DNA of 64,000 nucleotides from the NCBI GenBank assembly GCA_977020255.1, contig CDROCS010001033.1:62001-126000 (forward strand), in the 5' to 3' direction. Under the pieces are notes generated by a model, which saw nothing but the letters and a program-made list of their open reading frames with translations, was not told the DNA's origin and made no database searches. The stretch's first letter is position 1, and each line of letters opens with the position of its first letter. Positions 77-36,900 of this stretch are shown piece after piece. The stretch comes from Obrimoposthia wandeli (lineage: Eukaryota). A program made the position numbers and the translations under genes.

Positions 77-349
77 ATGAATAATACTATAAATAGAGAC
101 AATGAAGTGGATCGTCTTGCCGACGAAATATTTTCTGGAAAAATTAGGGTTAAAGAAATTTTATCAGAATTAAAAAATAATGATATAACAAGAGATAACA
201 TTGAAATATTGGTTAGATCACACGTTATTCGAGAATTTAGAAATCGTACACAAATAAATAAAATTATAGCCAAATATTCATTAATTAATTTTTGTATTTC
301 ATCTACAATAGCTTTAACATTGTACATTTCAATAAGGAAACTTCTATGA
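77..349 (+). CDS. Small (about 90 aa) protein with C-terminal hydrophobic segment, upstream of the Polinton ATPase
   Basis: Open ORF ending SLINFCISSTIALTLYISIRKLL with a TATAAA upstream (42-47). It occupies the same position as 7388-7672 in copy 2. Confidence 0.5.
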   Translation: MNNTINRDNEVDRLADEIFSGKIRVKEILSELKNNDITRDNIEILVRSHVIREFRNRTQINKIIAKYSLINFCISSTIALTLYISIRKLL

Positions 350-386
350 TAATATAAACAATATTAAAAATGAAAGAGTATATGCA

Positions 387-965
387 ATGGAGCTAAATAA
401 TAATGCTGTATTTCAAATAGTTGGCCCAAGTGGAAGTGGAAAGACACATTTCGTCAGTAAATTGTTGCAAAATGAATCTCTTTTCAAATCTAGTTTCAAA
501 AATATTTATTGGCATCATGGTGGAGGAGGGGAAAGCGGGTTAACCAAAACACAAGTTTGCAAGTTGAAGGGTATAAAATTTATTGAAGGATTTGATGCAA
601 ATTGGTGTGAAAGATTGAAAAAAGAAGATGTAATAATAATTGATGATTTGTATGAGGAGGCTAACAAGGAATCGGACTTTAATAATTTATTTACAAAGAT
701 TGCAAGACATCGTGAAGTTACAGTTATATTTATCACTCAAAATCTGTTTCACCAAGGAGGTCACCATAGAACAAGAAATCTTAATGTACATTACTTAGTT
801 TTATTTAAAAATCCTAGAGATCAAACAGTTGTTGATTTTATGGCCAGACAGGCATTTCCTCAAAATATGAACTTTCTAGTTGATTCATTCCACGATGCTG
901 CTAAACAAGCACATGGGTATATATTTATTGACTTTACACAAAATAATAAGTTTTACCTAAAATAA
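387..965 (+). CDS. Polinton/adintovirus packaging ATPase (A32/FtsK-HerA-like), C-terminally truncated
   Basis: Walker A GPSGSGKT, Walker B IIIDD, FITQNLF and RTRNLNVHYLVLFKNPRD motifs. It ends after GYIFIDFTQ, where copy 2 continues with DCPDDFRVRTDIF. Confidence 0.9.
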   Translation: MELNNNAVFQIVGPSGSGKTHFVSKLLQNESLFKSSFKNIYWHHGGGGESGLTKTQVCKLKGIKFIEGFDANWCERLKKEDVIIIDDLYEEANKESDFNNLFTKIARHREVTVIFITQNLFHQGGHHRTRNLNVHYLVLFKNPRDQTVVDFMARQAFPQNMNFLVDSFHDAAKQAHGYIFIDFTQNNKFYLK

Positions 966-1420
966 TACATGCATATAATCACTCTGAACATAGAGGTCTC
1001 AAGGGAATGAGACCTGTTGATGTTACTAATAAAAACTCTATGGACATTTGGATGAACAGAAATAAAAAAGATAAAATTAAAAAAGCTAAATATAAGAAAA
1101 ACGAATATGTTCGAATTTCTAAAATCAGCTCTACTCCATTTATTAAAAATTGTGATCAGAATTGAAGCGATAAAATATTTTGTATAAGTAAAATTGATCA
1201 AAAGAGTAATCTAATAATGAATTATATTAAATATGCCTACAATAATATCATCCAGGGTAAATTTTACGAGCAAGAACTGCAAGTAATATCATATAAACCT
1301 AAGGTTTTCCGTATTCAAAAAATATTAAAATCTAAGGGTACTGGTAAACATAAACAATACTTTATTAAATGGTATGGTTATTCAAATCCAACTTGGATAT
1401 CAGCATCTAATATAATATGA
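945..1420 (+). pseudogene. Maverick integrase C-terminal region with chromodomain (disrupted)
   Basis: Translation gives VLPKIIHAYNHSEHRGLKGMRPVDV, YVRISK, QN*SDKIF, then chromodomain FRIQKILKSKGTGKHKQYFIKWYGYSNPTWISASNI. Contains stops and frameshifts. Confidence 0.8.
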
Positions 1421-1534
1421 ATTTTATGTATATGGTTTTAACTAGTAACGGATGCTCGAAGAGTAGGTAGGTGTGGCACTTCTGGAAAAAAGCCCCACCC
1501 CCTGAGGACAAAATGTATTTGTTCTACTTTTAGG

Positions 1535-3584: not shown

Positions 3585-4337
3585 TTTGGTTTAAGAAGAG
3601 AAAAATAGTTTAGGAGGAGGTCCTTCGTATATTGTTCCATTCTCATGCTTGAAAGTGGGTGTTTATCCTTTGATTACGAATTTGTTTTCCTGAAGCGCAT
3701 AGTTGATTCCGAATTGAGTCAAGAGAATATTGATTCTCTCTTTATCCACAGAAGTCAAATTTTATATTTCAAAATCAAATTTAAGCGGCTTGATGTTGAC
3801 GGGGAAAATAAAATTATAGTTATGAGTTTTCTTCAAAAAGTGCATCTCATATTCATAATAAGTATGCATAGGTTGATATAGCTTTTCAAAATTCATATTG
3901 ACAATTATAATTTTAAATATTCAATTGTTTATCCTCTAAAGCTCAATTCTAATTGGTCGATATTCTTGTTTATGAAAATCGTTTAGTCTCAATTGGTTAA
4001 CATTCTTGTTTATGAAAATCGTTTAGTATTAGTCATATCCTTAAAGGGCTTACGTTCTTCGGTCACGCGCGTAGGACTTGTTATTGTTTGACTTGATGGA
4101 TTAATATTTTCTCTCTGATTATTTCTATTATAATTCATAAATTACTACCGGAACCTATATATGTACTAGCTCTACTTTGATTATTTTGATTATTATTGAT
4201 TATCGAAATATTGTTTATACTGCTTTATTTTTAAGACAAAGACATCACATGACTATTCTTGTGAATACTAAGAATGTTACTAAAAATAGATTTTCACTTA
4301 CTATATAAGCTAGACAATTTCATCATTCAATTTTGTT

Positions 4338-5334
4338 ATGACTACTAAATTTATTGCACATTATGTTTCGGAAAATGGAGAACTCAGCATTAGACGACGG
4401 CGTTTTGACAAGATTTCAAGAATAAATGAAAATATGATATATGAAGAAAGAAGATTAGATACATTACAAGCAAAGTTTACTGGTTTAGCGGATAAGAGAG
4501 CTTTAGCAAAAGCAGGATTTTACGGGCACGATGATTCGAAATATAATGTAATGTGTATTTACTGTCTGGGAGCAATATCGGAATGGGAGTACTATCTGAA
4601 ACCAATGAAGCGGCATCAGCTATTTTTCCCAAGATGCCCGTTTGTTTTGAAAATGAATGTTTCAAACGTACCAATAATTGATTCCAGCACCAAGCAAATT
4701 GATTTTGATTCTACTCCAATGGATAAAGTAGTTATTGTACGCAATAATTATTCTAATGATATTGAAACACCTACATTATCGATTTTTGATCATGTATATA
4801 TTTGGAATGATTCTTATCGATGTTGTTTCTGTCAGAAAGCAGTACCCCGACTTGAGTTTATTGATACTATGCCCGAAAGAATCTTTCATACTCGAGATTG
4901 TAAAGCATCTAGTATGGGAATCAAGAACGGATGTATTGTGGAATATCATATTAGTAATGATGAAATTGATGCTCAGATGGAAACTCGTCAAATAGTTTTG
5001 CTGAAACGTGATTATAGTCATGATAGAATCAAGGCCGTTTTAGTTAATAGATTTAAAACATTCGGTAACAAATATGATTCTATTTATGAGTTTATAACGG
5101 ATTTAAGATCTTTAGAAATAAAATCTGAGCCAAAACATCGTATAAATTATCTCGAGTACCTCTTACCAAATCCCGAATGTGTTGTTTGCATGAGCGATGC
5201 GATTTCCGTGGCATTTTTACCATGCGGTCACTTAAACACGTGTATTAAATGTTCAGATCGTTAAATGTCCATATTGCAAGACAATTATCATTAGACGAGT
5301 AAGAAATATTAGATTTCATAGCATAGGCAATTAA
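4338..5334 (+). CDS. iap: Intronless inhibitor of apoptosis (BIR + degenerate second Zn motif + RING), frameshifted in the RING tail
   Basis: BIR: RLDT..LAKAGFY..VMCIYC...EWE...MKRHQLFFPRCPFV. RING: CVVCMSDAISVAFLPCGHLNTCIKC. The ORF stops at 5264, but the last RING cysteines (KCPYCKT) continue in the +1 frame to 5334. Confidence 0.9.
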
Positions 5335-5400
5335 ACAAAGACATGCAATCTAAAAATAGATGTTCAAATAGTATAAATAGAAGAAATCAGTTTATAATAA

Positions 5401-5998
5401 TCAGAAATCCTACTTCACAATATCAAATTCGTGAATATTAATTACAAGGGAATGGTTGTAAGTAACAATCAACACTTACCATTTCGGACTTCGAAGCCTC
5501 ATCAGTATCGACTCAAGTGTGAAGGTTACACTATTATCCTTTTCAAATCTGGTAATTTATTTTACATTTATATATAATTATAATTTAGGTACATGCAGAA
5601 TAATGGGTTGCAAAACAGTGCTGGATGAAAGCAGTCTTCCTTTTGATATAAAAATCGAAAGAATCCAATCAATCAGTCTCAGTAGCAATCTAGAAACATC
5701 AATAAACCTGAACAAGATGAGTAAGAGTATGGCATCGGAAGCTGTTTACGAGACAGAAATCTTCCTGGGACTTCGATACGTCAAATACAATCCACTATGC
5801 GTGAAACTTTTTGCTAGCGGGAAGATTATGATACTTGGTGTTAAATCTTTAAACTATGAGTATCTGATTGAATGTATTTTGTTTAATATAGATCTTCACA
5901 CTTGTGTTATTTATTTCCTAAACCAAATAGTCGTTATGTGGTCTAAAAATAGATTTATCTTAGAGACAAAGACATCACATGTCATTACTTGCAAATAG
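5401..5998 (+). CDS. TBP-like (TATA-binding protein fold) gene with a 37-nt GT-AG intron at 5552-5588; start codon uncertain
   Basis: Splicing gives YTIILFKSG|TCRIMGCKT (cf. TBP LIFSSGKMVCTGAKS). The second repeat is VYETEIFLGLRYVKYNPLCVKLFASGKIMILGVKS (cf. YEPELFPGLIYRM..LIFVSGKVVLTGAK). Confidence 0.8.
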
Positions 5999-6112
5999 TT
6001 GCAAAAGTTGTAATGTTGCTAAAGATAGATTTATCTTAGAGACAAAGACATCACATGTCATTACTTGCAGATAGTTGCAAATAGTTGTAATGTGGTCTAA
6101 AAATAGATTTTT
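5927..6112 (+). repeat. Tandem repeat, about 76-bp unit x2.4, containing ACAAAGACATCACATG and TTGCAAATAGTTG motifs
   Basis: Directly visible. The motifs also occur at 4236-4251 and in the inverted-repeat arms. Confidence 0.85.
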
Positions 6113-6151
6113 CACGAGTTATAAACAATATTTTATTTGCTTTATCATAAA

Positions 6152-6250
6152 ATGGATGAAATTATTGAATGTAAAGAGGTTCAGGATGCATTAAAAGATC
6201 TTGCTTCAGTTATTCTTAATGCTTTAATTAGGAAAAATAATCATGAGTAA
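6152..6250 (+). CDS. Possible 32-aa peptide ORF (MDEIIECKEVQDALKDLASVILNALIRKNNHE)
   Basis: Short open frame right after the shared promoter-like cassette; no recognised homology. Confidence 0.25.
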   Translation: MDEIIECKEVQDALKDLASVILNALIRKNNHE

Positions 6251-6434
6251 TATTTATTTGTAGTTTATTTAACTCTTTAGGTTACGTCATCAATTTCATT
6301 TACATGAGATGTTAAGTACAATGTAAAGGTTGAATAATACTCCAATCAAATCACGCGGCTATGATGAAACTGATGCTCCAATGAAATCAAACCTCGTGTA
6401 GTATATAAGGGTAAATTGACTCTGAATTAATAAA

Positions 6435-7223
6435 ATGGAGAAAATCAATTCAGCATCACCAGCAGCAGCAACATCATCGCCAACAACTTCATCGCCAGCA
6501 ACATCATCACTGGCAGCAGCAGCAGCAACACTATCAGCAGCAACATCATCACCAGCAACAACAACAACAACAGTTATGAGAAGAGAAGAAACTATTGATG
6601 AAGTGATGATAGAAGAAGTTATTATAGATCCGATTATTGAAGAAGAAGATAAGAGACGATTAGATTTTTTAAATGCTTTGGCTTTTATGGAACCCATAAT
6701 AACTCATGCTTCCAGTATGGAAATGAACCATATGACCCATCTTTTTGATAGTTTGTTTAGTGCTAGATTTACTCAACTTAATGTAGAAAAGTTAAACAAA
6801 ACAAATATGAGTGAGATTTTAGTAAATCAAATATATATTGGTAATTATCGAGATGGGTTTGATGAAACTACACTTTTGAACTCCAATTTCACTCATGTAA
6901 TCAATACATCTATACTGGATAAGATATCTTATAAGAAATTAAAGTATACTTCTGTCTTTGTAAACTCAAAATTAGGAGAAACAATAATGAGATATTATAA
7001 ACAGACTAATAATATAATTAAAGAAACTATCGAAAATGGTGGTAAGATTTTAGTATGTGGTCATTATGGTAGTTTATATGCTGCTTGCATTGTTATTGCA
7101 TTTTTATCTCATTCGATGGGTGTTACTGCTGCTTCCAATCTTGTTAAAGCTAAACGGACTATTGCTGCTTCTAATGAAGCTATGTTTCATCAAATACGTA
7201 TTTTTAATCGCTATCATGTGTAA
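6435..7223 (+). CDS. Dual-specificity phosphatase-like protein lacking the HCX5R catalytic motif (pseudophosphatase), with Ser/Thr/Ala-rich N-terminus
   Basis: SEILVNQIYIGNY..FTHVIN..GGKILVCGHYGSLYAACIVIAFL..VKAKR..SNEAMFHQI follows the DSP consensus, but VHCxxGxSRS is replaced by VCGHYGSLYA. Confidence 0.85.
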   Translation: MEKINSASPAAATSSPTTSSPATSSLAAAAATLSAATSSPATTTTTVMRREETIDEVMIEEVIIDPIIEEEDKRRLDFLNALAFMEPIITHASSMEMNHMTHLFDSLFSARFTQLNVEKLNKTNMSEILVNQIYIGNYRDGFDETTLLNSNFTHVINTSILDKISYKKLKYTSVFVNSKLGETIMRYYKQTNNIIKETIENGGKILVCGHYGSLYAACIVIAFLSHSMGVTAASNLVKAKRTIAASNEAMFHQIRIFNRYHV

Positions 7224-7240
7224 ATTTTATTCTACTTTAT

Positions 7241-7328
7241 CTTTATTAATCAGTGTATTTATTAGTCAGTGTCTTTATTAGTTAGTGTCTTTATTAGTTA
7301 GTGTCTTTATTAGTTAGTGTCTTTATTA
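7241..7328 (+). repeat. 16-bp tandem repeat (ctttattagttagtgt) x about 5.5
   Basis: Directly visible between the DUSP-like stop and the next TATA box. Confidence 0.9.
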
Positions 7329-7387
7329 ACCAATCAGATTTCAGATGTATAGTATATAAACAGATTACTTTTTACTGCTTCTTCATT

Positions 7388-7672
7388 ATGTCTACTCCAA
7401 ACTATTTCAAGCAAGATGTTGACAAGGCGGTGAAGAACTTCATCTCGAAGAATGTCATAGAAGAAGATGTCCTGAAACTCATTGATGTTTCAAATCTACC
7501 CCTGGAGGAACACGTAAGAAGAATGGTGCACGACAAGGCAGTCAATCTTCTCATTCTGGGATACAATCAGAAGAAAGAACTTGCAAAGAAAGAAGAGAAA
7601 AGGAGCTTTTTCTACGAGAATAGTTTTTTATTGTTTCTTAGTGGATGTATTTTAATAAAATATTTTAAATAG
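7388..7672 (+). CDS. Small (94 aa) protein with C-terminal hydrophobic segment, upstream of ATPase copy 2
   Basis: MSTPNYFKQD...SFLLFLSGCILIKYFK, with GTATATAAA upstream; syntenic with 77-349. Confidence 0.55.
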   Translation: MSTPNYFKQDVDKAVKNFISKNVIEEDVLKLIDVSNLPLEEHVRRMVHDKAVNLLILGYNQKKELAKKEEKRSFFYENSFLLFLSGCILIKYFK

Positions 7673-7715
7673 TTTTGTCTTATAAACATTATCCCGATAA
7701 TCTAATATTTTTAAT

Positions 7716-8371
7716 ATGAACTTAAAAAATAATTCAGTTTTTCAGATTGTAGGTCCTAGTGGTAGTGGGAAAACACATTTTGTATGTAAATTACTGCAAA
7801 ATAATAAATACTTTACTTTTAAGTTTAATAAGATATACTGGCATTAGGGAGGAGATGGAGAAGCCGGTTTAACCAGTAAAGAGTTTAAGAAAATCAAAAA
7901 ATATAAAAAGTCATTAATGGATTCGATGATAATTGGTCTGAGCGATTACGTCATGATGTTATTGTTATTGATGATTTATATCAAGAAGCAAATAAAGAGA
8001 GTGCTTTCAATAATTTATTCACAAAAATAGCACGACATCGGGATGTAACTGTTGTTTTCATCACACAAAATCTATTTCATCAAGGAGGGAACCATAGAAC
8101 TCGTAAGTTAAATGTACATTACCTTGTTCTCTTCAAGAATCCACGTGATCAGACGGTTGTTGATTTTGTTTCAAGGCAAGCTCATCCGATAATAGAAAGT
8201 TCCTAATTGATTCATTTCAAGATGCAACTACTATTCGTCATGGATACATTTTTATTGGTTTTACTCAAGATTGTCCCGATGACTTTAGAGTTAGAACTGA
8301 TATATTCAATCCATCAGGAATTACCGTCTATAAACAAACAAAGAAACCAGTTTCTCGAAGATGAATTTTAA
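7716..8371 (+). pseudogene. Polinton packaging ATPase copy 2 (in-frame stop plus frameshifts)
   Basis: GPSGSGKT, IYWH*GG, VIDDLY, FITQNLFHQGG, YLVLFKNPRD; clear paralog of 387-965. Confidence 0.9.
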
Positions 8372-8789
8372 AAAGGAAGCTGTTAAATCTGAAGTTAAAA
8401 AATTGATTAAATCAGTTTTAAGTGCAAGGAAAATGGTTGCTCAAAAATCCTATAAGAAAAGAACTGTTGTTAAGAAATCTAGGAGTATTGCCTATTTCAA
8501 TTCTCTCATGCGTGCACCTGCTATTCGCCGCCCAGCTATTCTTAAATCATTCCCTACTTTTGTAATTGATGATTTACTTAATATGATACAGAAAATAGTT
8601 TCTGGTAAAATAATTGTCAAGGATAACATGAATCGGCATAAGAAACCTCTACTTGCTTTGTTTCACGCCAAAACACGGATCGGTAAACGTAAGTTACTTT
8701 ATAAGCAAAGTGGTGGATTTTTAGGATTTCTCGTACCAATTATTAGCTCAATAGTTGGTGCACTTGCTAGTAGACTAATAAAACGATGA
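8361..8789 (+). CDS. Basic Polinton core protein with adenovirus pX-like C-terminus
   Basis: Lys/Arg-rich protein ending KQSGGFLGFLVPIISSIVGALASRLIKR, resembling adenovirus pX (GG-ILPLLIPLIAAAIGA) with a possible protease site at xGG|F. Confidence 0.7.
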   Translation: MNFKKEAVKSEVKKLIKSVLSARKMVAQKSYKKRTVVKKSRSIAYFNSLMRAPAIRRPAILKSFPTFVIDDLLNMIQKIVSGKIIVKDNMNRHKKPLLALFHAKTRIGKRKLLYKQSGGFLGFLVPIISSIVGALASRLIKR

Positions 8790-8886
8790 TTATAAACATA
8801 AATTCGATTCAAAAATATGAATTTATATATGGGATCACATCCATCTATTCCTAAATTCAATATAAAAATCAAATCGTCTTGCTGTA

Positions 8887-9390
8887 ATGGAGAAAATATG
8901 GTTCGATCCAAGTTACACAAAACACTCAAAATTAGCAAAAGAGTCAAAGAAGGGGGGAAAGGAAACTCAGGCGTGGTTGAGAAATCAATTAGCTTACAGC
9001 TTAAACAAACCAATGAGACGTCGGTTCCCAACGAGATCATACAAAACAAGCGGCCCGAATGATTTATGGCAAGCAGATTTGATAAAAATGATTCTGTATG
9101 CGAGTATTAACGGTGGATATCGATATATTTTAACTTGTGTTGATGTCTTTAGCAGATTCGCGCGAGCTATTCCATTAAAGTCTACGTCTGGTATCGATGT
9201 TTTAGCTGCAATGAAGCTTTTGATTAAAGAAATAAAACCAAGAAATTTCCAAACAGATAATGGAAAGGAGTTTTATAATAAACATGTTGGAACACTATTG
9301 AAAAAACATAATATTAATCCTTACTCTGTATTTTCCCAATATAAAGCTGCTTTAGATGAACGTTTTAATCGAACATTTCCCCGGCATTGA
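8887..9390 (+). pseudogene. Maverick retroviral-like (DDE) integrase, N-terminus and core, truncated just after the catalytic Glu
   Basis: WQADL, YILTCVDVFSRFA, FQTDNGKEF, ERFNRT. The sequence breaks about 30 nt before the inverted-repeat arm at 9406. Confidence 0.9.
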
Positions 9391-9405: not shown

Positions 9406-10105
9406 GTATACACACTCTGATACGAGACAGAATATTTCTGCCTTGTTTTGTTTCGGAGTTTATGTGTGCGGCAGGGAAGAGAAATTCACACACACACACC
9501 GAGACGAGACAAAAAATGTCACGTGATGCCTTTGTGTGATTTTCAATTTGCGAGTATTTGCAACTATTTGCAACATACATGCACGTGATGTCCTTTGTTC
9601 TTCTATGCTGATTTTCTCATGGGAACTTTCACATACTGAGAACATGAATAAAGCCTTTCAGGACAACCTGATGAGCACACAAATATGAGCTCATTCTTGA
9701 AGCTACTTCTTTGAGCTGGTTCTATTAAGGTAGTTCTTTGATTTTGTTATTTTAAAATAAATCTTTGATATGGTTTTTTGAAGGTTGTTCTTTGATTCTT
9801 TAATATGGTTATTCGAAGGAGGTTCTCTCAAAGTGGAAAGAAAGTAAAACCTTCGTGGGTTAACCTTCAGGGGTGGACTTAAAAAATTTAATTTTTCTAC
9901 TTTTCAAAGTTATATATATTAGGCTTGATCTGATCTTGGTCTGACATCCAAGAATTGACCTAAAGAAACTTATACTATATTATGAAAACTTACATAGATG
10001 TTAAACTGAAATTAACGATATATCAATCATGAATATTCTACAAATAAAATTATTACAGTCATTAAGAACTTAAGAGTCAATTAAGGCATTGATATTTCTA
10101 ATGTT
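9406..10105 (-). repeat. Long inverted repeat, arm B (partner 1774-2488)
   Basis: Near-exact reverse complement of arm A. Confidence 0.95.
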
Positions 10106-11450: not shown

Positions 11451-11925
11451 CGGCATTTAATTGGTTAGAGAATAATTTTGTGGTATTTGAGAGGTTTAAA
11501 AAAATTTTTTTTTTAGTTGATTGAAAGTAACAAGGAGAGTTGGTGTATGTGTACATTCATCGACGAATGGATACAGCCAAGTATTTTTTCACGAAATATT
11601 TGCTGTCCATATCGTGATCATGGTGACCATTGCGCATATAAAAAATGTTTAAGTCTTTCTTATTAATACTTGACATGTAGATAAACAATTCTTCTAATTG
11701 GAGAAATAAAATTTTCATCCAATTACAAATACAAATGAACAATCCTTTTAATTGGAGGAAAAAAATATATTAAAATTAATATTATCAACCAAAAACAGAT
11801 AAACAATACTTCTCCATGGAGGAATAAATTCAATAATTTCATCCAATAAGAAAAGAGGATGTGTACATAAAATGTTGTATATAAGCTCACACCTTTTTCA
11901 TTTCAATCCCCAATATTTTGAAATA

Positions 11926-13053
11926 ATGAATATGGTGAGAACCTTTATTTTATTATTTCTTTGTTGATATTTATTATTTTAGATCACGTGTAACCTGTTT
12001 CCAACCTATTATGGGGCTTCGGCTCCACATGAAAGAGATTCCTGCATTGCGATAATGTCCGCCTACTATCGGACAAAGTCTCATGGGCAGGTATTCTTCG
12101 TCTGACCCTTCTGCAGAACTATGGAGGACAAGGAGTTTCGAGACTTCTTCAATGAACATCGAGATCACTTGTCCTGCTTCACGGCCAACAACAAGAAGAG
12201 GGTTATCTTGCAATTTGTGCACGATTCGCAGGTCGCTCCAGCTCCTGCCACTGTTCCAGTTGCAGCCGTTCAACCCGTTTACGGTCTTGCGATTCGTCCT
12301 TCTCTCCAGTCTCTCGATTCTGCAGCTGTGGCATCCACTTAAATGACTAACAATGAGTGGATGAACGACATCTCCCTAGAAGATTTTGAGGAGTTGGCGC
12401 CAGCAACCCAATTCTCGAACAATGACTGGATGAAAAATATCACCAAGTCAGATTTCGAGATGGAGCAGCCTCAGTGGAGCGACAACGGCTGGTTAAAACC
12501 ATCGAGGAATCCGATTTCGTCGAGTTAACAGACGACAGCATGATGGATTCTGTCAATGAAGACGACTTCCAACCAGCTACAGTTGATTCAGCTTCATCGG
12601 GTATTTTTTTATTACTATTTTTATAGCTATTTTTCTGATTATTTTTTAAAATTGTAATTTTTTTCAGGAAATATCTTGAGACAACCAATTCCGTCATCCT
12701 TGATGACAGCTATGCTTCCTCCATCGAGAGTGCCTACATCGATGTTTACACGCCTTAGAGGTAATAATTTAAAAATATATATATATTTATTAATATATTT
12801 CTTTCAGCAGATTTTTACAACAGTCGCTTCTCCGTCGGCAATGCTAGCTTCAACGCCATCAGCTACTACCTCATCTACTCCAACCTCAAATGCAACCCCT
12901 ACAAGCGCCATCGCCTCAACATATTCAGCAGCACATACTACAGCAGCACCTTCTACATCAGCTGCGATTGCCTCAATATCGGCAGCACCGACATATTTTA
13001 ATATAAATAGTTATCTTCCCATTCAATTAGGGAAAGTTTGTCAGCGACTGTAG
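11926..13053 (+). pseudogene. Decayed spliced ORF with micro-introns, repeated xxW(M/L)xxIxxxDF motif and Ser/Thr/Ala-rich segment
   Basis: GT-AG AT-rich introns at 11935-11982, 12601-12667 and 12761-12807/12810 separate GC-richer coding-like blocks. TATATAAG at 11878; stops and frameshifts present. Confidence 0.5.
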
Positions 13054-13222
13054 GAAGAAAGATGCGAGGCCAATTTCTTAATAAGGTACCACCAAAGCAA
13101 CGTAGGGAAAACGGTGCTACTATAAAGTATCACCTAAATAATAAATATGTTATAGTTAAGGTGCTAAAAATTTATTAAACGTAAGTGTAGATTCAAATAT
13201 TGAAAATATTTTAAAATCAGAA

Positions 13223-13741
13223 GTGACTAAATTAGGACAGGCTAAGGTTCAATTTTGCGCAACAGTGCAGTTTAAAAATGTCAATGAGGAGACTAAAACT
13301 TGGGTAATTTCACATAAAGCAACTGTTTTCTATGATAATTTTGTAACTGAAATTGGAAGAAACCTAGATGAAAAAATTGCTGATTATAGCGAGTTAAGTA
13401 GTGGATGGACTGTAGTTAGAATTCACGATGTTAGCTTTGTTCTAACAAAGTTCACTGACATGATATATCTTTCTGGGAGTTCATACATTACTTCACCTAG
13501 ATCTCTTCAACTTTCACGTTCCATTGTTAACATACAAAACAGTGATAACCTTTGCTTTCTGTATAGCGTGTTGGCCATCCTCAAAATGGGTGTAATTACT
13601 GTACATAGAGAGCGTGTCAGTAAATATACCCCTTTTTTAAATGAATTGCAGTATCATGGAATATATTTTCCTGTTAAATTAACTGCGATATCAAGATTTG
13701 AACATCTTAATAACTTGAGTATTAATGTATTACTTGAATAA
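13223..13741 (+). pseudogene. N-terminal region of Polinton/adintovirus-type protein-primed DNA polymerase B polyprotein (truncated)
   Basis: SSGWTV..GSSYITSPRSL..SIVNIQNSDNLCFLYSVLA..RERVSKY..IYFPV..RFEHLNNLSINV matches the pattern I recognise from invertebrate Polinton-type PolB ORFs. The catalytic polymerase domains are absent. Confidence 0.7.
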
Positions 13742-17297: not shown

Positions 17298-17937
17298 ATA
17301 GTAATCAGACAAGTGTGGAAGCTAAAATCGTAAAGAATAACTATAAGCTAGAAACACATGTCGCTGATGACGTTCTGTATGTTGAAGAAAAACCTTTGCA
17401 AGATTCGAATAGTTCATACGCCAGTAACATGGACCTCAATGATATCAGTTTTGTGCCAGTAGACAGAGTCAACGAATTGTGCCAGTCTCACAATTTGTCA
17501 ATGAGTGATGAAGCTCACGACTACTTGAAGAGAGCCAGCACACAATTTCTGCATCACATATTGAGTCAGGCATTTATTGCTGCAAAAGCCAGAGATCTAG
17601 TCAATGAAGTCCTGCGTTCGGATAGACACAAGCTACGGATGATCCCGAATCCGGTAACATGCTAGTTACAAATTCACATACCGTTGACGGTATCACGAAC
17701 AGAACGTTGCAATCTTTAAGGGAATCAGGGACTACGCAAACATTGTTGCAAGAATTCATAAATATCAAACCAAAAATACCAGCGAAGATTATTGATCCGC
17801 CAAAGGAACAGAAACAAGTGAACCATAAAGTTCGTATCACCACCAAACAACTGATATTGGTAATACAAATGCACAAGGCCGCGGACCAGCTTACATGTCT
17901 GAGAACATTCAAGGACCTGCAGAACAAGATTGGATGA
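17298..17937 (+). pseudogene. TAF4-like histone-fold gene copy, 5'-truncated, with a 1-bp frameshift near 17660
   Basis: Near-identical to 33608-34248; aacatgct here versus aacattgcc in the intact copy. Confidence 0.8.
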
Positions 17938-18890
17938 CTCTTCCAAGTTACAATATCCTCTAAAACATTATTATATTCTACTACGTTGTATTACTTATTT
18001 ATTTATCTTAATTACGTATTTAGTAACCTCTCATCATATTTTGTGATAAAAAATGCAAATCATTGATCCAAACACAACGAATTATTGATGTAACAATTCT
18101 TTTGATGACTTCTTAATATTAATTCATTAAACTTCCACTCATTCAATATTTTTAGCATCTTTTAAAAATACGACTTTTATGTGTCTACCAATTCTCCCAT
18201 AAATGTTTTCTTATTAGAATCACTGATGGTTGTACTTCAAAAATCACTTGTGAATATCACCTGTAAGAACCAAAATTCATTATCAAAGGAAATGATGCCA
18301 TTTTCAGAAATATCAATTGATAAAACTAAATGTCCTCCCAATTGTATTTCAATTGAATATCAATATCAAGATAGAATGATACAAGATCGGACCAAGCGGA
18401 TTGGTAATTCATGTTCGGAAAATATTCGAATGAGCTAATAAATAAACGTTATATATTCATATCTTTATTTTCACGATTATAATTATTTATTAATATTTAA
18501 TAAGAAAGAAGCCTGAAAGTTAAGGTTATAAATATAATGATAGAAATATTGATATTTTTTTGAATCAGATGATTCATGAAACGATAGACAGAGAAATGAT
18601 AGTAATGAATAGTAATATGAATAAAATTGTGAGAAACTACGCTATCTTTAGAAATATCAAACCTATACCCAATGATGACTCAATCGTCAATGGCTACTTG
18701 ATAGAATGGATGTAGATGAATCAATAAAATACTTATGATGAATTACGTACATTATTGTTAAGTTCAAATAATCAAGGTTCTATCGGAATTTTACAACATG
18801 TGTAATGATATAGATGAAATGTGTATTATTGCTAATTTTGGTATAAGATTCTTTGAGAGAGTATATAGGATTATAACCTGTTATAATATT
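17298..18890 (+). repeat. About 1.6-kb segmental duplication of 33608-35190
   Basis: Colinear match from atagtaatcagacaag through the TAF4-like ORF and about 950 bp of downstream non-coding DNA. Confidence 0.9.
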
Positions 18891-24900: not shown

Positions 24901-27900
24901 ATCTAAAAATAATAAAAAATCTAAAAAATCAGTGGCCTTTACGGAATGTGTTTAACAACTGGAAACGATGGCAAAGCTCGAGCAGCGAAGATAAAAGTAG
25001 GAAGTAAAGAAGAGACCAAAGCGTTGGTAAAGTAGTGTAAGTTAAAATTCTAAAGGGATATATAAATATAGTTTGATCCTAGTTGAATCAAATGTGAGAG
25101 TATGTAAGAAGATGTAAATATATTAAATTACGATTAAAGTAAAACAGACCACAAACTTATGGTATACCGACATTCTACATAAAAAGGATATTTTGTGAAA
25201 CTAAATGATATGTGATCTTTGTTTTAAACAACACAAAAACAAAAATGTTTATATGGTGGTATATGAAAATTGTTATGAAAACAAAATGTTAATGTGAAAC
25301 GATTTATGGAAATTTTTTGAGCTAATATCATATGTTTAATGCTGAATAAAGTTATATCTTATGATTTTATGTTTGATTCTACAATGGATTTAATAAGGAT
25401 TTACGTGAAGATTTAAACACCCTTTATGGATTTGACTAATATTAAACAAATTTCATAAATATTGCAATCCAATTAGAATAAAGCTCTATAGGATAAACAT
25501 TTACATATTTGAAAATATTATTGTAAATATGAATAAAGAAAATCTCTAACAACGTGTACATAAGTATTATGAATATTTGTTGCATTTTTGAAGAAACATC
25601 AAAACTATAATTTAATTTTTCCTGTCAAAATAGAGTTTAAATTTGATCATCAGATTATCAGCTCCCTGTGGATTGTTGACTCCTATATGAGAAATAGTGG
25701 ATTAATATATTTTTTTATATTTATTTTATTTCAAAATAAAACATATTTTTTTAATTAACTGTAACGTAAAATATTTTTAAATAACTGCAGCGTAGATAAT
25801 TTCATTCAATCAATATATATATACTATCCAATATGACGGACAATACAATGATGATAAAAGTTTAATAAAGATTTAACACATCCGGTAATTCGAAGGAAAA
25901 TAAAATTGATAAAGAAAGATAGTAGAAAAAGTGATATGTCAATGGTTTAACGATATAATAAATTTTAAGGAAGTAATATTTGTGGATGTAGTCACATTTT
26001 CTTTAGATGAACCTCAGTATTGCCCCTCTTGAAAGTTAAATGAAGTTGGGCCATCTGATTTTTGTAACAGAAGACCACATAAAGGTTGTTATGGTATGTA
26101 TGGCTATACGCATAAATGGTTTATTAGGGTTTCAGAAAATAGTTCAATCAATAGCTCAAGATGTATTGACTTTTTAAGCGACCAACTTATTTCTAATCTT
26201 ACTTAACGATCAATTTTGCAACATGACACTTTTAACTTTTAGTTATAATTAGTGAGTAAACACCGGCAATATTTTACCGGTTATTACCGGTAATGAAAAA
26301 CATTCTATTTGCCGGTACTGGAAGCCTTATTACCGGTAATATACATTTATTTTAAATATTAGGAAAAACTTTTATTAATAGGCAGCTAGGTTATGTGACT
26401 TATGTCCTGGTTTCCAAATTGAAGTCAGTCACTCAGTCAGAGTGGTTGTGCTGTGCGTGATTTCTGCTCTCTGCTTGCCAGTGTCTCTGTATACTAGATA
26501 AATTTGAAAACGTTCATAACTTCATACTGAAGCCTAGCATAACTTCTTCATTATAGTACATTTGAATTCAATTTATTGAAAATTTTACAATCCCCCATTA
26601 TGAGTAAAAAGAAATCAAATGTGTGGCAGTATTTTTTAAGAAAAAGTAAAGACGAAGCAGAATGTTTACAATGCAAAAAAGGACTTAAATGTGTTGGCGG
26701 TTCAACTTCTGGCTTGAAGGCCCATACGAGTAAAGTTCATAATATAACTAGTGAAGATGAAACAGATCACTCTAGTAAAAGCATTAATAGTAATACTTTA
26801 GATAAATATTTAGCCAAGAAGTCTCTTGATAATGAAATTGCAAGAATGGCATGCAAGGATGGGCTTAGCTTTAAACAAATTGCATCAAGCGAATTTATTC
26901 AAAGACATTTGGCAACAACTGCTTATGACAAAATACCACCAAGTACTGGAACTGGTGTTAAAAATTCGGTTATAAAACATCATGAAACAGAGAAGGCAAT
27001 ATTAGCTAAATACTTCTCAAATCAAATTCAAAATGGCCGCTGATTTTCACTTACTATCGATGAGTATACTTCTTCACAGAATCGACGCTTCATGAATATT
27101 AATGTGCATGATAAGGATAAATATTGGTCTCTTGGACTAATAGTAATTTCAGGTTCTCTAAACAGCAAAAAAGTCACTACTCTTGTTAAAGGAAGATTAA
27201 ATGAATTTAATTTAGACTTACATTGCCATGTAGTAGGTGTTACTACAGACGGAGCTTCATTAATGGTCAAGTTTGGTAGAGAAAACCAATTTATTCATCA
27301 ACTGTGTCTTGCACATGCTTGTCACCTGAGTATTTGTGATATTTTCTATGGAAAAAAGCAACTTGTAGAAGAGGAAACGGAAATAACTAACACAAATGAG
27401 GAAGAATTAAATCACATTCTTGAAGATTGGGACGATTGTAGTATTCCTTTGGATATGGCATTTGTTAGTGAAGAAGTTCAACATGAAGACAGTCCTCTAA
27501 TTAATCAAGGTAACTATGATGAGATAATTTCAAAAGTTCGTAAAATCTGCAAGGCCTTTAGAAAGTCACCTTTAAAAAATGATTATCTGCAGGAGATTGT
27601 TAAAGCTAACATGAAAAAAGAGATGAAATTAATCCTGGATACCAAAACAAGATGGAATAGCACCATTGCAATGATTAAGAGATTTTGTGAACTGAAGAAA
27701 TGTATTCCTGCTGCTTTAAGAAGATGTGAAATTTCTGAAGTAATTACTGAGAACGAATGGAGATATTTAGAGGATCTTGTACAAATGCTCCGACCTTTGA
27801 AATTGTCATCAAGGGACTCTCTACAGAAGATGCTACAATTTTGAAAGGAGAACAATCAATGAAATTTGTTATGAGTGAATTAAAATCTCAAAGTTCTATA

Positions 27901-30900
27901 TTGGCTTTAAAATTAGAAGAAAGCTTGCATAAGCGCTATACATCAAGAAGATTGAAGACGGCAATTGGATTAATCAAGTACTTGGAAGACCCTGATATAT
28001 TACATGATTTACATCCAAATGATACGGCCGATCTTTTTCATTTGCCTACGCCTAAAAATGTCAAGAAACTGGCAGTAGCAACATTCAAAAGATTGTATAC
28101 ATTAAAGGTGGAAACTCAAGAAGAAGAAAGGTTTCACGACTATATCGAGGTCTTTCACGATTCTTCAGCACATGAAATTACTGATCCATTGCTTAAAAAG
28201 TATGAAGATGAAGTTACTAATAAAAATAAAAGAGTCAAGCTATCTCAGCCTTCTGATGTCAATCTAATGAATAAAATGAAATTTTATGAGGCAACTAGAA
28301 AGCGAACAGAAAATATTGAATTGCTGTATCAGTCATTGCTGACTATTAAAGCCACTAGTGTAGAATCAGAACGGGCTTTCTCTGCGGCAGGATATTTTTT
28401 AACTAAGCTTCGTTCACAATTAGCTCCAAAGACATTGGATGCATTGAGCTGTATGCGCTGTTTTTATAATAACAAATAATGCTTGGTTATTAAATAATAA
28501 ATTTATTATTTAATAACCAAAGGAAATTATAGTTATTATTAGTCATTTTTCAAAGTTTGTTTTGTTGCATCAGGAATGATTTGTTTTTTAATTAACAAAT
28601 AATGCTTGGTTATTATTAGTCATTTTTCAAAGTTTGTTTTGTTGCATCAGGAATGATTTGTTTTTTAATTTATTATTTAATAACCAAAGGAAATTATAGT
28701 TTTTACTAGTCATTTTTCAAAGTTTGTTTTGTTTTTTAATTTTCTGTTTGAGTTCAACTTTTGTTCGAATATTCAATATAAAATTATAATGTGAAAACTA
28801 AGTATTTTTTGTGAACTCCTTATAAATACGCACCTAAAAACTACCTATACAGCAAAAAAATAAATAATTAGGAAAAACCGGTAAATACCGGTAATGATAT
28901 ATAGCTGTCGGTAATTTACCGGTAATTGAAAACACCGGTAATGTTTGACCCCTAGTTATAATCAATTATGTTTGTGTTTGAATATACAATTGTTTAAATA
29001 CATAAATGTTGACAATAGAAAACTCGCAGTTATTTAAAAATTTATCAAAATTGTAATTTTTTCAAACTTTTATATAGATTTGATGTTATTAAAAATGAAC
29101 ATAATCATTTAACACTAATATGCAAAAATATGTACAAGTGAGTTAATACTTAATGTTGGATAATTCTATTATTTTGAAAATGAATTTTATAATTATAAAC
29201 ATCAAATATTATATGTAAATGGATTTGTTTTAATAAATTATTTATTAAAGGCACTAAGTTTGAAATATTAAATGATTATTAATACATTAAAATCACATTT
29301 TTTAAAATTTTAAGTGTAATAAAATTACTGTTTCGAATATACATTTATATAAATACATCAATATAGATTATGTAAAACTTGCGGTAAGTTATATATTTAT
29401 TAAAATTGTTATTTTATTGCGAAGAGTTTAAATTTTTCTTTAATTTTATTTCAATAAATTGTACTTTAATATTTTATTTTAAAAATGCGTTGTATAATTT
29501 TTTTTTCATTTTTTGTTTAAAAATAATTTGTATAAATACATCAAAAGAAGCAATGAAATCCGTACACTAAGTTAAATATTTACCCAAAATTGGGAAGTCT
29601 TTTATGAGTTTAGGAAGAGTTTATATTAAATTTTATGTAATTACCTTTTTTAAAAAGGTTTGTTATTAAATTAAAAATATGTACAAGTGAGTTAATACTT
29701 AATGTTGGATAATTCTATTATTATTACCACAATTTTGTATTTTTCGTTCTATTGACCTGTGTATTTATCCGTTTTTTTACATTTTATTGCGAGTATAAAA
29801 TCTAACTGCAGACCTGTGAACGACACAAGTTAATTGAACACAAAACTTCAGGCCACAAATAGACACAATTTTATTTCTTTATACAACCTCGAATTGACAT
29901 ACAAATAGTAACAATTTTAGTGAATTATAATTTTGGTGAAATATAATTATCTATAACACGCTTTATTGTAACATTACTGAATGGAGAGTTTGAAGACGAA
30001 AAGAATCTCGAATTTATCCACCGAACAAAAGACACAATTTCCTAGAATTGTGAAACTAGAGAAGACACAATTGCGGAGGTTTCTACAAAAATACCGTAGG
30101 AGCGATTAACTATTAGCATGAAATAGTTGTATTACAAAACAAAATCGACATGGTAATCCAGACTCATCACGGTCCTAAGTTCCCAACTGCGCTACATTTA
30201 GTATAAAAATAAGACAAAACGAGATCCATCCGAAAATCATCCAAAATTATTTATTTATAGTTTTATATGTGCCTGCAGTGAAATTGTCAACAAATGGGTT
30301 AGCAAAAATACATAAGCCAAATATAGTTTTAGACAATTTTCCAAATTTTGGATAGTGAATAATCCTGGAACAATGCTTGTGATGTATAGAGCTGCAATAA
30401 AATATTATTAGCGGTGACGCCTGTTAATTTGATTTTTGCATTGGCAACGTGTTTATTTTAGCAGCATAAGCAGCAAATGATTTACCAATGAGGCCTATAA
30501 ATTTTTTAGATTCTAACAAAAGCATATGATGCGGTATTCACTACATCGTCTATATGAAGAGAAATAATATAGATGGATGAACATTGAACAAACATTTGCA
30601 GCAATGTTCATGGGTAAATAATAATTTTACTACAATAAGAATATGAATAACTATATGAAAAATTATTTTAAAAAATCGAAGGTGTGGAGGAAAAACCCAG
30701 CAAGAAGATAGAACCTCGGCTGTGAATATTGTATCGAAAGTTAGATTGTTATAGAAATTAACTTTTTTTCATTTTCTTCCGAATGCTTTTGTTAGGGTTA
30801 GGATTTATTAAAAAAATAGAAAAAATAGAACCCTGAAACCAATGTTAAAGAGAAAAAAATAAATAAATACAAATTTTAATTAAAATAAAATCGAATGTAA

Positions 30901-33900: not shown

Positions 33901-36900
33901 AGAGATCTAGCCAATGAAGTCCTGCGTTCGGATAGACACAAGCTACGGATGATCCCGAATCCGGGAACATTGCCAGTTACAAATTCACAAACCGTTGAGG
34001 GTATCACGAACAGAACATTGCAATCTTTAAGGGAATCAGGGACTACACAAACATTGTTGCAAGAATTCAAAAATATCAAGTCAAAAATACCAGCGAAGAT
34101 TATTGATCCGCCAAAGGAACAGAAACAAGTGAACCATAAAGTTCGTATCACCGCCAAACAACTGATATTGGTAATACAAATGCACAAGGCCGCGGACCAG
34201 CTTACATGTCTGAGAACATTCAAGGACCTGCAGAACAAGATTGGATGACTCTTCCAAGTTACAATATCCTCTAAAACATTATTATATTCTACTACGTTGT
34301 ATTACTTATTTATTTATCTTAATTACGTATTTAGTAACCTCTCATCATATTTTGTGATAAAAAATGCAAATCATTGATCCAAACACAACGAATTATTGAT
34401 GTAACAATTCTTTTGATGACTTCTTAATATTAATTCATTAAACTTCCACTCATTCAATATTTTTAGCATCTTTTAAAAATACGATTTTTATGTGTCTACC
34501 AATTCTCCCATAAATGTTTTCTTATTAGAATCACTGATGGTTGTACTTCAAAAATCAATTGTGAATATCACTTGTAAGAACCAAAATTCATTATCAAAGA
34601 AAATTATTCCATTTTCAGAAATATCAATTGATCAAAACTAGATCTGTACAATTGGATTTCAATTGAATATCAATATCAAGATAGAATGATACAAGATCGG
34701 ACCAAGCGGATTGGTGATTACTGTTCGGAAAATATTCGATGGATTTAATAAATAAACGTTATATATTTCGTATCTTTATTTTCTCGATTATAATTATTTA
34801 TTAATATTTAATAAAAAAGAAGCCCATTAAGGTTATGAATATAATGATAGAAATATTGATATTTTTTATCAAATGATTTATGAAACGATACACAGAAATT
34901 ATAGTAATGAATAGTAATTTAAATATATATACCTTAAAAAATTGTGAGAAACTACGCGATCTTTAGAAATATCATAATATCAATAATCAATGGCTACTTG
35001 ATAGAATGGATGTAGATGAATAAATAAAATACTTATGATGAATTACGTACATTATTGTTAAGTTTTAATAATCAAGGTTATATAGAAATTTTACTACATG
35101 TGTAATGATATAGATGAAATATGTGTATTATTGCTAATTTTGGTATAAGATTATTTGAGAGGGTATATAAGATAAGAACCTGTTATAATTTAAAGAATTG
35201 CATGTGGTCTTGTATAAGAGATGATAATTAATTTAACTTCCAAAACATCTAAATAATACATTCTTTTTCTAAATTTTCTTTACTATTACTACATTACTCA
35301 ACTTTATACTTCAAATCTCCATAACATATTATATTAGAAATATCATTAGGAGCTTCAATGATCAGCGACTTTATGCTGGTTGATGAGCCTGAAAGAACTA
35401 CTGAGACTGGACGTTGATAATAATATTTATAATTTCGGTGTTTCAATAATCAATATGTATCTACGGTAATATATGAATTTAAGGTATTTCGAAATTTCTC
35501 TGAAAGTTTTTGATAGAAGATTCATGAAACGATAGACAGAGAAATGATAGTAATGGATAGATATACTTAGATTTGTGTTTACTTATAAAATTTCGATTAT
35601 TGTTCTTTAAAACATTAACTTTATCATCTAACTCAAATATTATAATAAAACTCTTAATATCTTAGTTTTACAATGTTAACTAAAAGTTTATTTTATTGGT
35701 TAAACAACTACAACGTAGAATAAAACTCTTAATATCTTAGTTTTACAATGTTAACAACTAAAAGTTTATTTTATTGGTTAAACAACTACAACGTAGAATA
35801 TTTTTAAATAACTGCAACGTAGTTGAATTCAACAAATCAAAATTAATTTAGAAATTGATATATAAGATATATTGGAAATAAATATTAATTGTAAAGACTT
35901 AAAAATATAAAAAGTGACATCAAACACCTATAAAATACGAATGCTTAAGTGGAAAACATAGTATCGTGATTATTGTGATTGGCTATCTTATTTTTTAATC
36001 AAATTCTTGTTAAGTTAGTATTGATATCAGATTTATTTAGTGGACAGTTTTATTATTAAGATATTCGACTAACGTTACACTTTGGGCTCATAAAATTATA
36101 AATGCTGCTACAAGACCTTACTGTTAATACATCTCGGTACATATCATTCTGTAGTAATTTTAGCAAGTTTTAAGTGTGCTAAGTTAAATATAGTTATTTT
36201 AGCGAAATCGGTAGAATATTCATTCCGAGTTAACTCCCTTGTGAAATTCGTGTGCCCCCTAACATATAGATTAGCCGAGGGACAATCCACGTGACAATAT
36301 TCCACGTGCTGACAGATTCAGATGAGTATTGTCTACGTCGATTGGTCCCGTCTCTGTTTTATCGATATTCGATCTTGATATTGCTAGTCCCTGCCGACAT
36401 AAAAAGCTAACTCAACTGATAAACGTCCCACTCTGCGTTACATCATATCACACTAGCTTTGGGGTCCTACTAGCTATTATGTGAACACAACTCCTTGAAC
36501 ACACCACAAAACAACAAGACACAAAACCTTTAGATTTGAGACTAGAATTAAGTAGGATACGAACAGGTAGGCCACGTCCCTCTGTAAGCCCTATCGTTAC
36601 AGAACTCACGTTGGGGGCCTCCCTACGAGGATCTAATAGAAGAGTTTCAATTAGAAACCACAAATCATTATAAATTTATTTTCTAATTTTAAAATCTGAT
36701 TATATAAATATGTTAAAATTATGGAATTAAAAAAAATAAAAATTTTACTATTTATATTAAAAGATTTTACCTTGAAATTAAAAATAAATTTAAAATAAAA
36801 ATATAAAAATAAAGTTAGAAACAAAAAAAAATAAATAAGGATATTGGAAGGTCATGGGGAATTGGAAAAGTATAAATAGAAGCTGTGTAAAAATATCCCC

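Follow-up and report, generated by a model that had tools for sequence, protein, structure and literature searches.

A decayed Maverick at the locus

We analysed a 64-kb stretch of the Obrimoposthia wandeli genome, hereafter the window (C1033:62001-126000, contig CDROCS010001033.1 of the 1.35-Gb genome assembly GCA_977020255.1, G000), and give coordinates as positions in the window unless a contig is named. A decayed fragment of a high-copy Maverick/Polinton, which we call family A, occupies positions 3606-9377 of the forward strand. It runs from the accessory block at the left end of the element to the middle of the integrase gene, corresponds to the left third of family A by blastn, and is ~91% identical to other copies (blastn and tblastn map). 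As the original prediction had described, an IAP gene, a TBP-like gene and a DUSP-like gene lie co-directional just upstream of core viral genes, and Pfam searches and the open reading frames (ORFs) bear out these identities and their order.

The left edge of the fragment holds two minus-strand features: a truncated, conserved ORF of ~129 aa (3606-3896), a candidate of no assigned role whose counterparts adjoin TBP-like genes in metagenome Polintons, and a portion of a 71-aa family A ORF (4019-4138). All further features of the fragment are on the plus strand. A promoter module, GACATCACATG ... CTAAAAATAGAT followed by a canonical TATATAAG at 4302 (module at 4241-4310), precedes the IAP gene (4338-5340), which has no introns and encodes an N-terminal extension, one BIR, a degenerate Zn-binding remnant, a UBA-like region and a RING; its ORF stops at 5264, and positions 4338-5264 match the Pfam BIR (E 2.9e-11) and RING (E 3.6e-8). 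Another CTAAAAATAGAT motif and a canonical TATAAATAG at 5372 (5350-5380) lie 5' of the TBP-like gene, which consists of exon 1 with a shortened first repeat (5416-5551), a predicted 37-nt GT-AG intron (5552-5588), and exon 2 with the second repeat and a YE(P)E-F-P-L stirrup (5589-5998; Pfam TBP, E 6.9e-10 on 5603-5998). Tandem copies of the promoter module (5943-6110) and a TATAAAC at 6120 with a 32-codon ORF at 6152-6250 (together 6120-6250, identical in 23 of 35 matches among ATPase-anchored copies) lead on to the DUSP-like gene (6402-7223). There, a canonical TATATAAG at 6402 is followed by an ORF (6435-7223) made of a Ser/Thr/Ala-rich N-terminus and a DSPc domain (Pfam, E 1e-11), whose P-loop reads CGHYGSLY in the window and has no CX5R. 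A TATA word and a 94-aa membrane ORF with a hydrophobic C-terminus come next (7353-7672; no Pfam family at cut-off).

The core genes are each headed by TATAAAC: at 7681 before the packaging ATPase (7716-8361, feature 7681-8361; A32-type Pox_A32 matches in pieces), at 8329 before a 142-aa ORF with a pX-like tail (8329-8789; weak Adeno_PX match, E 0.006 on 8361-8789), and at 8791 before an rve integrase that starts at 8887 and is truncated at 9377 (feature 8791-9377; PF00665, E 7.2e-14 on 8887-9390). TATA-like words 33-36 nt upstream of the IAP, DUSP and membrane ATGs agree with the compact TATA promoters that had been proposed for these three genes. Decay of the window copy is seen in the IAP frame, broken in the RING, in TBP exon 1, which lacks a start codon, in the stop and frame breaks of the ATPase, and in the integrase, which ends at 9377.

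Anatomy, linkage and selection in family A

Natural copies of family A measure 14.7-16.4 kb (16.3 kb is given for the element) and have inverted ends of ~550-750 bp beginning AGTAG. Among the 8 copies examined, the 6-bp target duplication was perfect in 5 and carried one mismatch in 1, both ends not being located in the other 2. The gene order is three small leftward ORFs, IAP, TBP-like, the 32-codon ORF, DUSP-like, the membrane ORF, ATPase, the pX-tailed ORF, integrase, capsid candidates of 340 and 409 aa separated by a 120-aa ORF, adenain, a 169-aa ORF and pPolB. The pPolB gene, which lies outside the window fragment, matches PF03175 on two parts in a natural copy (E 2.5e-10 and 2.1e-14), and the adenain-type protease matches PF00770 (Peptidase_C5) at E 0.0015, weaker than the curated cut-off. 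The capsid candidates sit at the expected place and have homologous ORFs in other Polinton-like contigs, without a matching Pfam family. The 169-aa ORF, with an N-terminal acidic DFE motif and no match in Pfam, we take to be nuclease-like.

Family A thus shows the pPolB, rve integrase, A32-type ATPase, adenain, AG-start inverted ends, 6-bp duplication and size of a Maverick/Polinton, and its core genes, AGTAG ends and duplications uphold the Maverick/adintovirus-like identity first assigned to it; the pX-like tail is likewise shared with described Mavericks/adintoviruses (PMC8502044), and the capsid candidates would be a further common feature. It differs from the adintoviruses described in the accessible part of that source in that its TBP-like, protease and pPolB genes are predicted to contain spliceosomal introns. 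At C1071:1,181,030-1,185,090 (L033), predicted introns follow codon 2 of the adenain gene, lie at the start of pPolB and interrupt pPolB further on.

Searches with DUSP, IAP, TBP exon 2 and ATPase each gave 150 of 150 scored matches that were complete or almost complete at 93-100% identity, a lower bound that corresponds to at least 150 copies. All three cassette genes (IAP, TBP-like and dead DUSP) were present in 18 of 40 ATPase-anchored family A copies, with IAP and TBP missing together from 9, IAP alone from 5, and other losses in the remaining 8. This linkage and the high copy number run counter to the possibility, raised at the outset, that the three would prove never linked to Maverick core genes or to be single-copy host genes. 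Eight of the 9 deletions of IAP and TBP share breakpoints between repeated promoter modules, those at 4241-4310 and 5943-6110 in the window, and both recurrent deletions were also seen as joints in the read contigs of 4 runs, which come from one sample and have flat depth.

Family B (C3067, C3621) has the order TBP-like, IAP, small ORF and ATPase, with no DUSP. Pieces of yet another Maverick family lie upstream in the window (77-1420, plus strand: a small ORF, an ATPase 75% identical to that of family A, and an integrase C-terminus with a chromodomain), and this family has its own TBP-like gene just upstream of the window and no IAP or DUSP. The trio is therefore specific to family A, a family-specific composite and not a single cassette. 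Homology of the membrane ORFs of families A and B was rejected, as no alignment was found between them.

Ratios of nonsynonymous to synonymous substitution (dN/dS) were first computed on a pool picked by protein similarity and, for that reason, redone on ATPase-anchored copies only. Against a divergent subfamily, they were, in the first pool, 0.09 and 0.13 for the TBP exons (0.07 for the ATPase), 0.25 for IAP, and 0.31-0.37 for DUSP (two divergent copies, approximate Fisher p 4e-7), which agrees with purifying selection on all three genes. Within family A, on the ATPase-anchored copies, shared IAP variants had a dN/dS of 0.10 and singletons one of 1.02 (p 2.5e-4), the sole significant test of this kind among the three genes.

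A palindromic derivative of family A, in which the left ~4 kb of the element (with IAP, TBP-like and part of DUSP) recur in inverted form in place of the nuclease-like ORF and pPolB, was found on C2574, C1312, C1346, C3154, C1323 and C2062 (L194-L205), and on C988. Its breakpoints match in 6 of 6 fetched copies, pointing to one amplified non-autonomous subfamily. Flip-flop of its inner segment was rejected; what looked like two orientations is a single element read from one strand or the other. At C5183:4,000-36,000 and C1033:500-17,800, Maverick pieces and an arm segment make up a ~7-kb unit that is repeated in tandem arrays.

A compact TBP-like protein of viral lineage

The TBP-like gene is predicted to have two exons and a product of ~150 aa. 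Its GT-AG intron of 37-38 nt measured 38 nt in 20 of 28 matches, the other 8 falling outside the strict pattern; the family B intron is 36 nt long, of other sequence and at the same codon, and the proteins of family C and of metagenomes are intronless. A single-repeat 'half TBP' was rejected because exon 1 exists upstream, with 22 of 40 residues identical to a metagenome relative, P0008. Unspliced relatives of 150-160 aa occur in metagenomes (49 clusters at E<=1e-30 in a profile search). Polinton genes adjoin the TBP-like match in 17 of 80 metagenome loci, including an ATPase, integrase or capsid gene in 11 of these, and none of the 80 loci matched the family A IAP or DUSP. Family C (L372, L373, L375; C919, C1607, C4059) carries an intronless TBP-like gene of 144-150 aa, divergent from pPolB.

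We modelled P0008 from an 82-row alignment at pLDDT 97.5 (an earlier 9-row alignment gave pLDDT 65 in the second half) and obtained a TBP saddle that superposes on human TBP with Z 14.1 and a root-mean-square deviation of 2.6 over 149 residues; the best non-TBP row of the fold search reached only Z 6.7. The first TBP repeat is shortened in the compact family and the two-repeat saddle is retained in this model. Three Phe are conserved in the 82 aligned members (81 of 81 filled, 82 and 82), as is the stirrup Glu in 80, and four positions are fixed in 81-82 of the 82 (R46, M48, S/T70 and N115) that are mostly Val/Ile, Thr, Asn and Leu in cellular rows. We take these four positions to face DNA, as in TBP structures, and assume for the Phe and contact residues the roles they have there. 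The canonical TBP set of four intercalating Phe plus TATA-contact residues is absent, with three Phe present and the fourth within the deleted part. The compact protein would work like a TBP paralogue, not like a canonical TBP.

In a quick tree, 14 of 15 Polinton-context TBP-like proteins fell apart from cellular and host TBPs on a branch with SH-aLRT 98, from which the gene appears to be an old viral lineage and not a recent host capture. Recent capture of a host TBP was rejected on this tree, which relies on two host paralogue rows and other cellular rows, the host row from C238 being poorly extracted (40% filled). The Nucleocytoviricota TBP-like proteins included fall on the cellular side; proteins of this group also gave the best BFVD fold matches, and these are longer, mostly 190-500 aa. 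Nucleocytoviricota encode their own RNA polymerase. The host carries several TBP paralogues on C238, C968, C60 and C1092 (L359-L368), two of them head-to-head on C238 and a near-identical intronless pair on C60 and C1092.

Two promoter classes

A variant word, (C/T)ATAAAC, lies ~35 nt before most genes of family A and B elements. Across nine elements, 77 of 145 occurrences of ATAAAC were followed by an ORF start at a distance of 15-110 nt, most often 31-37 nt, compared with 12/90, 30/167, 20/104, 16/84 and 23/112 (13-21%) for five control hexamers (p 4e-7 to 6e-11). In metagenome elements, it was found on the sense strand in 16 of 16 (L091) and 10 of 10 (L087) matches, above shuffles, and its frequency was no higher than chance in the two elements with full-length TBPs, L403 and L133. 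Among the ATPase genes, the word preceded 11 of 11 in compact-TBP elements (in one case with A at the first position), 0 of 2 in elements with full-length TBP, and 1 of 4 in elements in which no TBP was seen, this last match lying inside the ORF as called and these controls being few and incomplete contigs (L400, L404-L406).

The TBP-like genes themselves are preceded by the variant word in 0 of 15 cases. In family A, the IAP, TBP-like, DUSP and membrane genes use TATATAAG or TATAAATA, and a canonical TATA was present in 25 of 26, 20 of 20, 29 of 33 and 25 of 26 pattern matches, respectively.

The Polinton-like contigs L133 and L403 have TBP-like genes of full length (185-188 aa) and no promoter word; the L133 protein retains more canonical residues, and the two may represent an intermediate stage. 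L401 and L403-L406 are Polinton-like contigs that had been binned into bacterial metagenome-assembled genomes and are likely mis-binned eukaryotic viruses.

A TBP fold with conserved Phe, an altered and more polar DNA face, and late-promoter selection on a TATA variant are features of the beta/gamma-herpesvirus vTBP, of which ORF24 of KSHV acts in a six-protein complex on TATT promoters; incompatibility with TFIIB binding is also discussed in the accessible part of that source (PMC12529657). The Maverick protein shares the fold, the Phe and an altered face, and would act similarly as a late-promoter selector; it differs in its size of ~150 aa, its retained stirrup, the absence of identified partner genes, and its candidate word (C/T)ATAAAC. 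Homology is seen only in the TBP fold, to which is added here a sequence-level association of motif and gene.

The dead DUSP, the IAP and a giant retrotransposon

In the alignment columns of the catalytic residues of the DUSP, Cys is replaced by Gly, Arg by His (by Tyr in the window copy) and Asp by Ser, so that the CX5R P-loop and general-acid Asp of an active enzyme are missing. The dead P-loop CGHYGSLH is nearly fixed in 33 copies, of which 26 are free of stops and frameshifts. Pfam detected only DSPc in this ORF, with no rhodanese/KIM (MAPK-docking) domain and a low-complexity N-terminus. With three catalytic residues lost and no rhodanese domain detected, the suggestion that this protein damps kinase signalling lacks direct support. 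It could perhaps be a catalytically dead binding module under selection, a doubtful assignment in which a MAPK decoy is possible but unsupported. STYX and MK-STYX also combine a DUSP fold with a replaced catalytic Cys, by Gly in STYX as here; the Maverick protein additionally lacks the P-loop Arg and the general-acid Asp. STYX binds ERK with its Cys-to-Gly change and without a CH2 domain, and the dead MK-STYX need not bind, according to the accessible part of PMC8622459.

In a natural copy, the IAP is a 333-aa intronless ORF (BIR E 1.1e-11, RING E 2.6e-11) whose best PDB match is BIRC2. Judging from its family, it is probably a ubiquitin ligase of the BIR-RING type, which would prevent the cell from dying during replication. 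A word-index protein search gave no relatives at E<=0.001 for the IAP (499 candidates) or for the DUSP-like domain (78 candidates), and matches in the ESM Atlas went no further than family-level clusters of DSPc and of BIR-RING. In the metagenome Polinton L087, a RING-only ORF (1710-2168; PF13920, E 1.5e-6) lies directly before the ATPase and outside the IAP RING group.

A search for host DUSPs returned at least 150 intronless DUSP domains, and the 30 that were fetched all came from one other repeat. This repeat is a ~19.7-kb element (C399:422,090-441,839; L188, L186, L187) with long terminal repeats (LTRs) of ~740 bp and an open frame of 4,633 aa. The frame encodes a Gypsy polyprotein with Gag-CCHC, weak ubiquitin-like and weak Bcl-2-like (E 0.09) regions, a mononegavirus-type fusion glycoprotein, a protease, a BIR-RING, a second protease, reverse transcriptase, RNase H and integrase, and also an intact DUSP followed by a dead DUSP with hydrophobic segments. 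By its single polyprotein, in-frame Env, BIR, two proteases and LTRs, we liken it by description to the planarian Burro elements; compared with those in the accessible part of PMC6431247, it is built alike and additionally carries the intact and dead DUSPs, and the word 'phosphatase' is absent from the accessible text of that review.

The Gypsy IAP aligns end to end with the Maverick IAP (E 9e-49), and no sequences nearer to the Maverick IAP and DUSP were found than those of the Gypsy element. Over 242 columns, the family A IAP is 39% identical to the Gypsy protein vs 31% to the host gene (39 vs 37% for family B), and the Maverick DUSP is 29-33% identical to the active Gypsy DUSP vs no more than 27% to any of 8 host DUSPs. 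The host has genes of the same build, with introns, on C2454 (IAP) and C934 (DUSP), and an exon search found no closer host paralogue by score among 150 scored matches. DUSP trees were built without the broken copy C765, and one also without the long row of the second Gypsy DUSP. Scans of viral contigs with the IAP, with the Gypsy DUSP, and with IAP, ATPase and capsid alignments gave no match, nor did an ATPase scan of a phage collection, and for this reason the comparisons have no outside IAP or DUSP outgroups and few TBP-less Polinton controls.

Other features of the window

Two arms flank the fragment, at 1774-2488 (left, plus strand) and 9406-10105 (right, minus strand), and are inverted copies of a separate repeated segment. 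The left arm bears two promoter motifs, and the cassette motifs GACATCACRTG and TTGCAAATAGTTG are present in both arms. The sharing of motifs between cassette and long repeat arms was thus correctly noted in the original prediction; the arms themselves do not form the ends of this element. We rejected them as terminal repeats of family A because they are unmatched to the element in mapped copies and the right arm runs on elsewhere, past 10105 to at least 11.5 kb in the tandem arrays on C5183. Of the 47 matches listed for the arm repeat, the best ten are on two contigs.

The terminus of a related Maverick, AGTAGG, lies at 1463-1520 (plus strand; 88% over 57 nt vs the family A end), and remnants of the nuclease-like ORF and pPolB N-terminus of another Maverick follow the right arm at 11595-13741. 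A repeat whose two copies (17298-18824 and 33608-35124) are 16.3 kb apart contains a weak histone-fold ORF (PF00125, E 6e-4, 17429-17662). Positions 26600-28479 hold a BED-finger ORF (BED, E 3.4e-7) with downstream ORFs, which we take to be hAT transposase-like, and 46404-50590 hold an integrase remnant, presumably of Gypsy type, an ORF of 475 aa with hydrophobic segments, and one of 396 aa that we take to be DEDD exonuclease-like. Exons at 54859-57537 presumably belong to a host gene for an R3H-domain DEAH RNA helicase.

Relation to published elements

Adintoviruses are known to carry IAP and Bcl2 homologues, and 'TBP' appears as a label in a MELD-virus figure legend in the accessible part of Starrett et al. 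2021 (PMC8502044), which says nothing there about a compact TBP throughout a clade, a promoter word to go with it, a dead DUSP or genes in common with a retrotransposon. Polintons that hold genes within their inverted ends and carry transposon cargo (10.1101/2025.02.07.637071, 2026 preprint), host-gene cargo in nematode Mavericks (cited by PMC11131425) and pPolB classes (10.1101/2023.08.22.554363) are covered in the accessible parts of these sources, and the accessible texts of PMC11071308 and 10.1101/2024.03.25.586562 contain no term matches to TBP, IAP/apoptosis or phosphatase. In the literature searched, with subscription papers and Repbase outside the search, we found neither the compact TBP family nor the motif nor a Polinton DUSP described. 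Of the trio, a combination that the original prediction did not know from described Polintons, the IAP is already in print. The three-gene list is less surprising than it first seemed, IAP being known from such elements and the trio being family-specific.

A proposed early-to-late switch and its alternatives

The best overall explanation, and one that we regard as modestly probable, is an early gene block behind ordinary TATA words followed by a compact TBP that activates late genes through (C/T)ATAAAC. The IAP, TBP-like, dead DUSP and membrane genes would be the likely early block, read by host TBP via ordinary TATA; the element's shortened TBP-like protein would then bind (C/T)ATAAAC, and this binding would switch on the packaging, integrase and capsid genes. 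The switch follows from a TBP-like gene that sits on a host-TBP promoter and whose product would read the word of the packaging, integrase and capsid genes, with herpesvirus vTBPs as precedent. For the early/late timing and the pairing of TBP with motif, both drawn from sequence patterns, we see about an even chance. The wider proposal is tentative, and we think that it has a minority chance of holding in full: a broad Maverick clade would use a one-protein switch, in which a shortened TBP with a rewired DNA face reads (C/T)ATAAAC for virion genes, and the early block would have been stocked with IAP and dead DUSP from a giant env-bearing retrotransposon.

Several observations weigh against these proposals. 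The motif was first spotted by eye in families A and B, which are 2 of the nine elements tested, and 68 of its 145 matches are not before any ORF. A canonical TATA lies within 70 nt of only 5 of 15 TBP-like genes; the family B IAP has the variant word (TATAAACA), the window membrane gene has TATATAAACAG, pPolB carries both word types, and the protease carries neither. The compact TBP and the motif map to one ATPase clade (11 elements, support 93/98), so that their co-occurrence counts as one event. The modelled protein, P0008, is a metagenome relative 50% identical to exon 2 and not the window's own protein. The within-family tests of shared vs singleton variants were not significant for the TBP exons (p 0.63 and 1.0) or DUSP (p 0.27), and 22 of 40 copies multiplied although the cassette is incomplete or absent in them. 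On the origin of the accessory genes, BIR and RING trees join the host gene and both elements (98/97 and 90/92) with the inner order unsettled; site patterns favour Polinton with Gypsy only in the C-terminal half of the IAP (29 vs 12 sites, p 0.012), the N-terminal half of the family B IAP leans to the host (21 vs 12 sites), and Polinton plus Gypsy DUSPs are supported by just 37/91 and 54/85 with alternatives not rejected. In the trees, the TBP-like protein stands apart from host TBPs, and the IAP and DUSP trees single out no donor.

The three genes had been proposed to form a host-manipulation module, in which the TBP-like protein would poison or redirect host basal transcription, for example by titrating TFIIB, and a host factor would read the motif. 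In favour of this reading are the location of the TBP-like gene among host-derived genes, its canonical TATA, the CTAAAAATAGAT module that it has in common with IAP, and the retained C-terminal stirrup, which we take to be the TFIIB contact. Its unity is weakened by an old Polinton TBP-like gene that other elements carry in many positions and without IAP or DUSP, and the three Phe and family-fixed altered residues across 82 sequences fit DNA reading better than a decoy. The promoter evidence points to service of the element's own genes and away from altered host transcription, and we consider this alternative unlikely. We give similarly little weight to the proposal that (C/T)ATAAAC serves as a Forkhead-type site for the host or as a variant poly(A) signal, linked with the compact TBP by shared ancestry only. 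ATAAACA fits the Forkhead core, CATAAA and TATAAA are variant poly(A) hexamers, and motif and compact TBP do occur in a single clade; however, the spacing, with its peak at 31-37 nt before the ATG, is TATA-like, 28 of 82 cases have a base other than A after the motif and only 10 of 82 have A before it, and the motif heads divergent units (before their first gene) and sits inside upstream ORFs ahead of their stop codons. That the DUSP-like gene is neutral, decaying cargo is improbable: its catalytic residues are all gone, its within-family test is not significant and family B lacks it, but its dN/dS of 0.31-0.37, its intact copies, its nearly fixed dead P-loop and its own TATA speak for retention.

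The IAP and DUSP were added to the Maverick later and are under purifying selection. They may derive from two intron-containing host genes, intronless in the Maverick, through exchange with the Burro-like Gypsy, a route to which we assign an even chance and which we rank as likelier than separate captures; a dead Maverick DUSP as the source of the intact Gypsy DUSP is unlikely. Under separate capture, Maverick and Gypsy would each have taken both genes from host mRNA with no exchange between elements. The host genes of the same build on C2454 and C934 could have supplied them, the trees do not reject it and the N-terminal half of the family B IAP is nearer the host, yet the genes of both elements descend from the same two lineages, the elements are more alike in sequence to each other than to the host, and the C-terminal site patterns favour sharing between elements. 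We regard separate capture as a serious possibility that falls somewhat short of even. If exchange between the Maverick and the Gypsy element is true, the IAP and DUSP would provide a concrete example of functional genes that moved, within one genome, between the polyprotein of a retrotransposon and a virus-like DNA element.

This sharing with a giant retrotransposon and the compact TBP with its candidate promoter word are the findings most worth following. A true viral life cycle of animal Mavericks has been inferred mostly from capsid genes, and a virus-encoded TBP with a candidate promoter word makes timing testable with one small protein and a 7-base motif. If true, the proposed switch would show specificity of a TBP paralogue outside the herpesviruses, and would mean a herpesvirus-like early/late programme in 'transposons'.

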